Source: Nitrospira sp. (lineage in GTDB: Bacteria; Nitrospirota; Nitrospiria; Nitrospirales; Nitrospiraceae). Taken from it: a stretch of 25,204 nucleotides of DNA. The notes below the pieces were generated by a model. It did no database searches. It was given only the letters and a program-made list of their open reading frames with translations, and was not told the origin of the DNA. Location of the stretch: positions 1 through 25,204 of the forward strand of contig JANOOS010000225.1 in assembly GCA_031421455.1 (NCBI GenBank), written 5' to 3'. Positions 19,750 to 21,897 of this stretch are shown here, piece by piece; positions within the stretch are counted from its first letter, which is position 1; each line of letters begins with the position of its first letter. The translations under genes and the position numbers were made by a program.

Positions 19750-21897
19750 ATGAGTGAAGCTTTATTTAGCCCTTCCTGGTATCGCGTGGCGATGTTGGCT
19801 CCACGCTTGCGCAGCCATGCGCAGTTGCACCGCCACCAATATCGAGGCCAGATCTGGTACGTACTCCAGGATCGCTCGAACGAACGGTTTCATCGCTTTT
19901 CTCCCGCGGCCTACGCCTTCATCGGCCTGATGGATGGGCAGCGGACGGTCCAGGATATTTGGGAACTCTCCTCGACGAAGCTGGGTGACGAGGCTCCGAC
20001 CCAGCCGGACGTGGTGCAGCTCTTGAGTCAGCTCCACGCCGCCGACGTGCTGCAGTGCGACATCCCCCCCGACATTGCGGAATTGCTGCATCGACACGAA
20101 CGGACGCAACAGAAGAAGTGGCAGCGTCGGGCGATGAGCATCTTTGCCTGGCAGTTCCCGCTCTTCGACCCGGAGCGTTTTCTACAAACCTTCGCGTCAT
20201 TGGTCCGGCCTTTCTTCGGATGGGGCGGCGCGGTGCTGTGGCTCTGTCTTGTGATTCCCGCTGTGCTGATCGGGGCCGCGCACTGGTCGGATCTGACGGC
20301 GAATCTCCTCGATCAGATGATCACGCCGCAAAACCTCGTGCTCCTCTGGTTTCTATTCCCGATCATCAAAGCATTGCACGAGTTTGGCCATGCCTTTGCC
20401 GTGAAAGTCTTCGGCGGCGAAGTGCATGAGATGGGGATCATGCTGCTCGTGTTCTCGCCGGTGCCCTATGTCGATGCGTCGGCCTCGTCGGCCTTCCCGA
20501 GTAAGTGGCAGCGGGCTGTCGTGGGCGCAGCCGGCATGATCGTCGAACTCGCGATTGCGTCAGTCGCCATGTTTGTGTGGGTGAGCGTCGAGCCTGGTAC
20601 CGTCCGCATGCTGGCCTATAACACCATCATGATTGCCGGGATTTCGACGGTCCTGTTCAATGCCAATCCCTTACTTCGGTTCGATGGCTACTACATGCTC
20701 GCCGATCTCATCGAGATTCCCAATCTGCGCCAGCGAGCCAACACCTACCTCGGCTATCTCTGTGAGCGGTATCTCTTTGGCCGAGTGGAGGCGCAGGCGT
20801 CACAGGCCACGCCGGGTGAGCGTTCCTGGTTTGTGGGCTATTCGGTCACCTCGTTTATCTACCGGGTATTCATCGTCGTGGCCATTCTCCTGTTTCTGAC
20901 CGACCAATTCTTTGTGCTCGGGATGTTCTTCGCCATCTTGACGGCCTTCACCTGGTTCGTGCTTCCATTGGGAAAGGGCCTGAAGTATCTGTTCACGAGC
21001 CCGCGCATCCGCCGCGTGCGTGGAAGGGCGCTGGCGGTCACGAGTGGGGCGTTGGCTGTCATTGTGGTGGCGCTGTGTTTTACCCCGGTGCCCTTTCGTA
21101 CGCGCGCGGAAGGCGTGGTGTGGATTCCGGACGAGGCCATCGTGCGTGCTGGCGCCGATGGGTTCATTGAACAGGTGGTGGCGGTTCCAGGATCAACCGT
21201 GTCACAAGGCGATGTGTTGGTGCTCTGTCAGGATTCCCTGCTGACGACGCAGGTCACCGTGCATGAGGCCCAGCTTCGGGAGATCCAGGCGCGCATTCGT
21301 GAGCAGATTCCAGAAAGCATGGTCAAAGCGAAAATACTTGAGGAAGAGCAGCGCTACATCGAAGAGAAACTTGCCCACGCGAGGGAACAGGTCGGGGATC
21401 TGGTGATTACGGCGAAAGTAGCCGGCACGTTTGTGTTGCCTCGTGCGGGGGATCTGCCAGGCCGGTTCGTGCATCGCGGCGACGTGTTGGCCCACGTGGT
21501 GGATCTCGACACCTTGACCGTGCGGACCATCGTGGATCAGACCGATATCGACTTGATCCGTCACAGCCTGAAGGCGGTCCAGGTTCGGCTGGCCGAACGG
21601 CTGGCGATCCCGATCGATGCCGCGGTGAAACGGCTGGTGCCGGCGGCAAGCGATGAATTACCGAGTCCTGCACTCGGGAGCGAAGGAGGCGGGCAGGTGC
21701 CGATGGATCCGAAAGATCCCAAGGGTCAGAAGGCCCTGCGGAAAGTGTTTCAGGTGGATCTCCAATTACCCGTCGAGCCGGGCATCGTGAACGTGGGCGG
21801 GCGTGTGTACGTGCGGTTCGATCATGGATGGGAATCGCTCATGGCCCAGTGGTATCGCCAGGGACGACAATTATTCTTGTCGCGTTTCAATGTTTGA
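19750..21897 (+). CDS. PqqD/RRE-like + M50 zinc metallopeptidase + HlyD-type MFP fusion
   Basis: N-terminal YVLQD...RFHRFSPAAYAFIGLMDGQRTVQDIW...VVQLLSQLHAADVL (PqqD-like winged helix). HEFGH at 20377-20391 and NANPLLRFDGYY at 20659 onward; multiple TMs; C-terminal VRAGADGFIEQV...G..V..GDVL and AKVAGTF MFP motifs. Confidence 0.87.
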   Translation: MSEALFSPSWYRVAMLAPRLRSHAQLHRHQYRGQIWYVLQDRSNERFHRFSPAAYAFIGLMDGQRTVQDIWELSSTKLGDEAPTQPDVVQLLSQLHAADVLQCDIPPDIAELLHRHERTQQKKWQRRAMSIFAWQFPLFDPERFLQTFASLVRPFFGWGGAVLWLCLVIPAVLIGAAHWSDLTANLLDQMITPQNLVLLWFLFPIIKALHEFGHAFAVKVFGGEVHEMGIMLLVFSPVPYVDASASSAFPSKWQRAVVGAAGMIVELAIASVAMFVWVSVEPGTVRMLAYNTIMIAGISTVLFNANPLLRFDGYYMLADLIEIPNLRQRANTYLGYLCERYLFGRVEAQASQATPGERSWFVGYSVTSFIYRVFIVVAILLFLTDQFFVLGMFFAILTAFTWFVLPLGKGLKYLFTSPRIRRVRGRALAVTSGALAVIVVALCFTPVPFRTRAEGVVWIPDEAIVRAGADGFIEQVVAVPGSTVSQGDVLVLCQDSLLTTQVTVHEAQLREIQARIREQIPESMVKAKILEEEQRYIEEKLAHAREQVGDLVITAKVAGTFVLPRAGDLPGRFVHRGDVLAHVVDLDTLTVRTIVDQTDIDLIRHSLKAVQVRLAERLAIPIDAAVKRLVPAASDELPSPALGSEGGGQVPMDPKDPKGQKALRKVFQVDLQLPVEPGIVNVGGRVYVRFDHGWESLMAQWYRQGRQLFLSRFNV

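Follow-up and report, generated by a model that had tools for sequence, protein, structure and literature searches.

In peptidase-containing ABC (ATP-binding cassette) transporters such as the colicin V exporter CvaAB-TolC, a C39 protease built into the exporter reads and cuts a double-glycine leader, and in Gram-negative bacteria these transporters work together with a membrane-fusion protein (MFP) and TolC. Here we describe a locus that may handle an N-terminal leader with a different set of parts. It lies in a stretch of 25,204 nucleotides (hereafter the window) that makes up one contig, JANOOS010000225.1, of a Nitrospira-type metagenome-assembled genome (MAG; 2.5 Mb, 483 contigs, 90% complete), and its central element is the protein P0001, in which a PqqD-like RRE (recognition element for ribosomally synthesized and post-translationally modified peptides, RiPPs), an M50 metalloprotease and an HlyD-type MFP domain are fused in one chain. 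We consider it fairly likely that P0001 is the subunit that recognises and removes the leader in a TolC-linked export cassette without an ABC transporter, whose candidate cargo, a large protein with a LEPR-XLL tag, is encoded divergently from the cassette.

The gene module itself is already known. A 'secondary SecA_DEAD' locus, exemplified by META1p2402-2399 of M. extorquens AM1, was described in silico by Kamneva, Poudel and Ward (2015, PLoS One, PMC4452313), who noted HlyD, weak M50, GAF and SecA_DEAD domains, suggested the M50 protein as a pore, listed Nitrospirae among the carriers and left the biological role open; no cargo, leader or PqqD/RRE domain was reported there. RRE-linked and M50 leader peptidases are likewise established: in RiPP pathways the M50 enzymes EpeP, TglG and TmoG cleave leaders or scaffold peptides, with a presumed additional export function for EpeP, and proteolysis of lasso leaders is enhanced by RREs (PMC10885120). 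The protein family of P0001 is also annotated in databases. On the side of the cargo, a 2026 preprint on Chlorobium chlorochromatii describes a pair of LEPRxLL symbiosis proteins of 20,000-36,000 aa without a known transport signal. In the searchable literature, outside which subscription-only papers lie, we found neither a published connection between the locus and LEPR-XLL cargo nor one between an RRE and protein export.

The fusion protein and its parts are as follows.

19750..21897, forward strand: RRE-M50-HlyD fusion protein P0001, 715 aa, an open reading frame (ORF) and the second gene of the operon
19801..20055, forward strand: PqqD/RRE-fold domain, residues ~18-102, predicted to be cytoplasmic (Pfam, profile, AlphaFold2 (AF2) and Foldseek)
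20173..21084, forward strand: M50 intramembrane metalloprotease region, residues ~142-445, with about seven predicted transmembrane helices
20377..20391, forward strand: HEFGH zinc-binding/catalytic motif, residues 210-214, with H210, E211 and H214 invariant
20659..20688, forward strand: NANPLLRFDG motif, residues 304-313, with N304, P307 and D312 invariant
21085..21894, forward strand: HlyD-type membrane-fusion (periplasmic adaptor) domain, residues ~446-715

The predicted RRE fold of the N-terminal domain is confirmed by three independent routes. A profile of 39 N-domain sequences matches the solved PqqD structures 3g2b (E = 2.2e-4, residues 18-102) and 5sxy (E = 1.7e-3). In the AF2 model of residues 1-128 (pLDDT 85.8) the elements succeed one another as in canonical RREs, b1-b2-b3-a1-a2-a3, a winged-helix fold in which an antiparallel sheet of three strands precedes three helices (DSSP: b1 24-31, b2 34-41, b3 46-50, a1 52-59, a2 67-81, a3 85-97). 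Foldseek, which together with HHpred had been proposed for checking this domain, retrieves leader-bound RREs at TMt 0.66-0.76 (TbiB1 5v1v 0.75, PqqD 5sxy 0.68, lasso B1 6jx3 0.66), and also returns TbiB1 5v1u and the RRE-bearing enzymes ThcOx, CteB and LynD. Moreover, residues 9-107 of the full-length model match RREs at Z 8.9-9.6 (VIA structure comparison), and some orthologues of P0001 carry a precomputed PF05402 match. The PqqD-like domain that the first-pass annotation had placed at about residues 15-105 thus stands, with boundaries close to those expected. Within it, b2, b3 and a3 are the most conserved named elements of the fold (scores of 2.55-2.59 against 1.57-2.28 for b1, a1, a2 and a4), and the unstructured N-terminal 23 residues of the fusion are equally conserved (2.54). 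The peptide groove of canonical RREs, in which a bound leader adds a strand, is formed by b3 and a3.

The protease and adaptor parts were also recognised in the first-pass annotation, which described intact M50 motifs (HEFGH and NxxPxxxxDG) and a C-terminal MFP in the same chain, and both descriptions hold. All six motif residues (H210, E211, H214, N304, P307 and D312) are unchanged in 42 diverse homologues, including paralogues of only 22-24% identity. In M50 enzymes HExxH sits in one transmembrane helix and NxxPxxxxDG, with its Asp as third zinc ligand, in another, a layout with which P0001 agrees. Residues 142-389 of the full-length AF2 model (pLDDT 86.8) match RseP and SpoIVFB at Z 8.8-9.7, among them, within residues 142-324, RseP 7w6z (Z 9.7, 20% identity, residues 191-323) and SpoIVFB 8vjl (Z 9.2), and orthologues have a precomputed PF02163 match. 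The C-terminal part belongs to the MFP/HlyD family, whose members have lipoyl-like, alpha-hairpin and beta-barrel domains behind a transmembrane anchor, by its HlyD_3 score (residues 570-633, 31.9 bits against a cut-off of 22.2) and by the matches of model residues 445-705 to MexA, EmrA, MacA and AcrA at Z 13-14. The first two domains together are also matched by the NCBIfam model daptide_HExxH (NF041824, an RRE+M50 didomain; residues 18-405, E = 1.8e-51), at 175.5 bits against an equivalog cut-off of 300. Between RRE and MFP the model contains seven long hydrophobic helices, and the loop before the last of these (residues 412-426) has six K/R and zero D/E. By these helices and the positive-inside rule, P0001 is predicted to cross the membrane seven times with its N-terminus inside and its C-terminus outside, which would leave the RRE and the M50 motifs in the cytoplasm and the MFP in the periplasm. 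An RRE and an M50 site on the cytoplasmic side would fit capture and clipping of a leader at the point of entry.

A candidate leader is found on the divergent neighbour.

11835..16853, reverse strand: divergent candidate cargo, 1672 aa (1700 aa if read from TTG 16937)
16689..16853, reverse strand: cargo leader, a basic N-region without a hydrophobic core, followed by FQLEPLESRILLAADL

The probable start of this protein is ATG 16853, which has GGAG ahead of it. The leader is followed by CARDB, 11 cadherin/Big_9 repeats, RTX repeats and a serralysin-like C-terminal region. The LEPRxLL leader claimed for it in the first-pass annotation is recognised by the LEPR-XLL model NF012209 (16689-16748, reverse strand; residues 36-55 from ATG 16853) above the cut-off of 17 bits, with 20.5 bits in the window scan and 26.1 bits in the genome scan, and is the single match in this genome. 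The leader ends in LEPLESRILLAAD and has no GG motif.

The fusion gene is embedded in an operon with the following further members.

17771..19684, forward strand: GAF-HlyD adaptor P0003, first gene of the operon (Pfam/NCBIfam)
21899..23881, forward strand: short SecA-like ATPase P0004, ~660 aa, with DEAD motor and PPXD; its ORF opens at 21803
23878..24735, forward strand: small HlyD-family adaptor, 285 aa (Pfam/NCBIfam)
24878..25204, forward strand: 5' part of a TolC/OEP-like outer-membrane factor, which runs past the end of the window

Full-length orthologues of the TolC/OEP-like gene are present at three other loci (L007, L009 and L020). The SecA-like ORF may open at GTG 21803, giving a 95-nt overlap with the end of the fusion gene, but translation more likely starts at ATG 21899, directly 3' of the fusion stop codon. 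An overlap of 4 nt between the SecA-like gene and the small HlyD gene (23878-23881) suggests translational coupling. The ABC transporter gene of a classical type I secretion system (T1SS) was found neither in the window nor in the loci of this SecA-containing layout (type A) that we examined, and Pfam/NCBIfam scans of the cassette proteins returned no C39 peptidase or ABC domains of the kind that characterise peptidase-containing ABC transporters.

The fusion is widespread and its operon is conserved. At E <= 1e-30 the family comprises 4526 clusters (50% identity) of proteins nearly all ~715 aa long, which databases name 'HlyD family adaptor' or, in JGI, 'putative peptide zinc metalloprotease'. 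We retrieved 80 loci from Pseudomonadota, Myxococcota, Desulfobacterota/delta-type lineages, Methylomirabilia and Nitrospirota, and found GAF-HlyD next to the fusion in 75 of them, the SecA-like gene in 71 and the small HlyD gene in at least 52.

The association with LEPR-XLL proteins was examined in two phylum-level samples. Among 151 Nitrospirota genomes, NF012209 matches are confined to the genome studied here (G000) and two others (G044 and G059), which are exactly the genomes with an orthologue of P0001 at >=59% identity, and each of the four matches has an M50-HlyD gene within 8 kb. All M50-HlyD loci of this sample were retrieved, and a broader leader pattern, LExR[ILV][LM][LF] at residues ~35-80, occurs in an adjacent large ORF at 13/13 Nitrospiraceae fusion loci, in each case preceded by a K/R-rich stretch without a hydrophobic core. 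The pattern matches 16 of 704 ORFs, 15 of which are adjacent to a fusion gene. Two M50-only matches without the MFP domain in the Nitrospirota sample had no leader-bearing neighbour. At locus L007 of G059, a leader-bearing protein of 690 aa (6628-8700, reverse strand; LEARVLLAGDL, no Pfam match) is encoded within the operon, between two small HlyD genes, and shows that candidate cargo can be modest in size and operon-encoded.

In the second sample, of 300 Gammaproteobacteria, 19 genomes have both the fusion and a LEPR match, three have LEPR only, 21 the fusion only and 257 neither. The fusion is therefore present in 19 of the 22 LEPR-positive genomes compared with 40/300 overall (odds ratio 77, Fisher p = 3e-16), a p-value that overstates the association because related genomes are not independent. 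Where the fusion is of the best-scoring kind (type A), a LEPR match is found in 15/16 genomes, and in at least 11 genomes the fusion and LEPR genes share one contig and are adjacent by their boundaries. Five of five cultured proteobacterial carriers (Pseudomonas, Mesorhizobium, Marinobacterium, Ramlibacter and Frateuria) possess LEPR-XLL ORFs of 4.6-14 thousand aa, which by coordinates end just upstream of the operon, firmly so in Mesorhizobium and Pseudomonas and likely in the other three. A search for the leader within 10 kb on either side of the 80 distant loci found it at only ~10 of them; this does not reflect a true absence, because the giant genes are 20-40 kb long and their 5' ends fall outside such flanks. 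The flanks do contain giant ORFs truncated at the edge, and an ORF of >=1000 aa flanks the fusion at 45/80 loci, upstream and on the same strand in 30 of these. Taken as a comparison of sequences, co-occurrence and adjacency in the two samples lend strong support to a specific association of the fusion with LEPR-leader proteins. In this comparative sense they partly support the proposal of the first-pass annotation, in which the RRE would bind the LEPRxLL leader and the M50 site would clip it.

Based on these observations, we infer a role for the RRE as binding site, for the M50 site in leader cleavage and for the cassette as the route of the polypeptide. The cassette would consist of GAF-HlyD, RRE-M50-HlyD, the SecA-like ATPase, the small HlyD and TolC, and would serve a class of large or giant proteins whose N-terminal leader of ~35-50 aa is basic, lacks hydrophobic character and has LEPRxLL at its end. 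In the same way as RREs take hold of RiPP leaders, the cytoplasmic RRE would first capture the leader of the cadherin/RTX protein of 1672 aa; the M50 site on the same side of the membrane would then cut the leader off at or after LExRxLL; the fused periplasmic adaptor and the two other adaptors would join the entry point in the inner membrane to TolC; and the SecA-like motor would thread the chain at the expense of ATP. P0001 is the best candidate for recognising the LEPR-XLL tag during export, and probably it also trims the tag.

A second, SecA-less version of the cassette (type B) strengthens this reading. On contig C293 of the same MAG (L006, 352-8945) lies a paralogous cassette of HlyD, a 455-aa GAF-HlyD and an M50-HlyD (27-29% identity), the last directly followed by a DUF4347/cadherin giant of >1376 aa with a basic start and then LSLESRIMFDGAA. 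A fragment upstream of this cassette was considered as a SecA C-terminus and rejected, as it has no similarity. The type-B layout (TolC, HlyD, GAF-HlyD, M50-HlyD) has its own TolC and no SecA-like gene, recurs in 8 Nitrospiraceae genomes and is the commoner cassette type in this family. Its partners are without exception DUF4347 proteins with LE[PS]R[LI]MFDAAA leaders, and the leader variant therefore tracks the cassette subtype. The type-B N-domain is homologous to the RRE of P0001 (hhalign E = 2e-5), and the parts with cytoplasmic domains that both subtypes have in common are the RRE-M50 fusion and GAF-HlyD. A search of five genomes for an extra SecA found the housekeeping SecA alone in the four with type B only, and in G059, which has both types, nothing beyond the housekeeping SecA except the copy of its type-A cassette.

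Several points weigh against P0001 as a leader receptor and peptidase. Its own Pfam scores remain below the gathering cut-offs, both for PqqD (PF05402; residues 37-100, E = 3.6e-4, 21.2 bits against 23.4) and for Peptidase_M50 (residues 203-279, 23 bits against 27.2). Of the 40 fusion-positive Gammaproteobacteria, 21 have no NF012209 match, possibly because their leaders are of another variant, their genomes are drafts or their cargo is different. No dedicated ATPase that could energise the type-B cassettes is found near them. The cargo in the window has an RTX/serralysin-type C-terminus, and a partial PrtD-like ABC gene lies on another contig, so that a dual route is conceivable for this protein. 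We also place here, without a verdict, a single co-folding run of the RRE domain (residues 1-128) with cargo residues 29-90 (P0002 numbering), which gave a score of 0.01 against a mark of 0.32 and speaks neither for nor against the contact.

The alternative that survives best, although we regard it as unlikely, keeps the export of LEPR-XLL proteins by the cassette and assigns the reading of the leader to the large cytoplasmic GAF region of GAF-HlyD or to the PPXD of the SecA-like protein. The PqqD-like domain would then dock the motor or gate the protease, and the M50 part would be a channel scaffold or a quality control that clears stalled cargo. GAF-HlyD equals the fusion in conservation and occurs in both subtypes, the PPXD has been retained in the SecA-like protein, the co-fold lent no support to contact between RRE and leader (which is not evidence against it), and the M50 protein has been proposed as a membrane pore (PMC4452313). 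However, type-B cassettes lack the SecA-like protein and yet have both a leader and an RRE-like domain, and the invariant catalytic residues argue against a purely structural M50. The N-domain itself also disfavours this alternative: its best structure matches are leader-bound RREs, and its most conserved fold elements are b2, b3 and a3, albeit with the N-terminal 23 residues on the same level. To our knowledge, the only known role of the RRE fold is leader binding.

We give distinctly less weight to the possibility that this RTX protein leaves the cell through a classical ABC-type T1SS by means of a C-terminal signal. The cassette would in that case only process or release the N-terminus and so control retention and release, with a loose parallel in the action of LapG/LapD on LapA. 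The RTX repeats and serralysin-like C-terminal domain of the cargo agree with such a route, as does the partial PrtD-like gene (G000, C331:8692-9579), which scores 406 bits over half the model. A partial HlyB-like ABC gene is found as well (G000, C258:1811-3448), and with both genes elsewhere in the MAG the cassette may have a classical T1SS beside it in the cell. Yet the window has no ABC gene, and a cassette that includes a TolC, three adaptors and an ATPase far exceeds the needs of processing. RTX-like C-termini, moreover, occur in only 8/35 cassette-adjacent giants, which points to the N-terminal tag as the general shared feature.

A third explanation, that P0001 is the leader peptidase-exporter of a small RiPP or bacteriocin and its giant neighbour a coincidence, is very improbable. 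It draws on the NF041824 match (E = 1.8e-51), a match to the YydH/LiaK model (E = 3.5e-9), the JGI name 'putative peptide zinc metalloprotease' and the processing of epipeptides and pearlins by M50 enzymes (PMC10885120), but the scores fall far below the cut-offs (175 vs 300 bits for daptide, 37 vs 225 bits for YydH/LiaK) and giants with a LEPR leader accompany the fusion in several phyla. The window contains none of the aminotransferase, reductase and methyltransferase genes of a daptide-type cluster, no other modifying enzymes and no plausible precursor; in the divergent intergenic region of 900 bp, searched for small ORFs of precursor type or DUF3467 type, there are only short ORFs without conservation. 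We therefore reject the RiPP reading on the absence of modifying enzymes and the sub-threshold family scores. Hardly more credible is a site-2 protease of regulated intramembrane proteolysis, acting on an anti-sigma factor or other regulator without a role in export, since, for all that M50 is the S2P family and RseP and SpoIVFB are structure matches, P0001 lacks PDZ and CBS domains, its operon has no sigma/anti-sigma gene and it is fused to an MFP inside a TolC/adaptor/ATPase operon in at least 70/80 loci.

The surroundings of the cassette contribute some further observations. In the divergent intergenic region, at 16965-17030, a unit of ~21 bp (AATGTAGGGnGACATAATnC-like) that forms a small dyad is repeated three times in tandem, ~110-175 bp upstream of the cargo ATG; the array may serve the divergent promoters as an operator. 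At 6490-7175 on the reverse strand, an upstream ORF of 104 aa overlaps at its end with a nucleotidyltransferase-substrate-binding/HepT-like ORF of 124 aa (Pfam E = 6e-29 for the latter), a layout that resembles a HEPN/MNT-type toxin-antitoxin pair. The remaining genes of the window are housekeeping genes (folP, glmM, comEC, mtnA, ndk, lpdA, comEA and tyrS).

Some of the largest proteins known from bacteria are LEPR-XLL proteins. If P0001 has the role that we favour, these giants would gain an export route with a concrete receptor-peptidase and machine, and a locus that has been an orphan for a decade would be explained. RRE leader recognition would also reach beyond small peptides, with RiPP machinery repurposed for proteins of up to ~14,000 aa. 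Culturable carriers, including Methylobacterium, Pseudomonas, Azotobacter and Mesorhizobium, offer a testable system. A wider proposal, to which we give slightly less than an even chance, is that the cassette represents a distinct trans-envelope secretion system for the largest bacterial proteins, guided by an N-terminal leader, independent of ABC transporters and driven by a SecA paralogue (in type B by another driver), in which the fusion would serve as receptor and signal peptidase.

Compared with the described systems, the cassette shares something with each of them. The analogy with C39-peptidase ABC exporters that was drawn in the first-pass annotation is apt as an analogy: an N-terminal leader would be handled by a protease integral to the exporter, together with an MFP and TolC. 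The parts, however, are different, as the cassette has no ABC transporter, C39 cysteine protease or GG motif, and possesses instead an M50 zinc protease-MFP fusion, a candidate RRE reader and a SecA-paralogue motor, for cargo of up to ~14,000 aa and not a peptide. The RiPP leader peptidases (lasso B1/B2, EpeP/YydH, TglG/TmoG and NF041824) resemble P0001 in placing an RRE fold beside a protease or in using an M50 enzyme, and the didomain of NF041824 is homologous to that of P0001, but P0001 scores below the family cut-off, adds an MFP, has no biosynthetic genes around it and is paired with a giant repeat protein in place of a peptide of <100 aa. Classical T1SS (HlyBD-TolC, LapBCE) have in common with the cassette a conduit of MFP and TolC and large, repeat-rich cargo, here with RTX repeats; they differ in that our operon lacks the ABC transporter, has three different adaptors and a protease, and is associated with a shared signal that is N-terminal. 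The present operon is a member of the locus of Kamneva and colleagues, with which it shares four genes in identical order (GAF-HlyD, Peptidase_M50-HlyD, short SecA_DEAD and HlyD/biotin-lipoyl); what is added here is the link to LEPR-XLL proteins and the type-B cassette without SecA.

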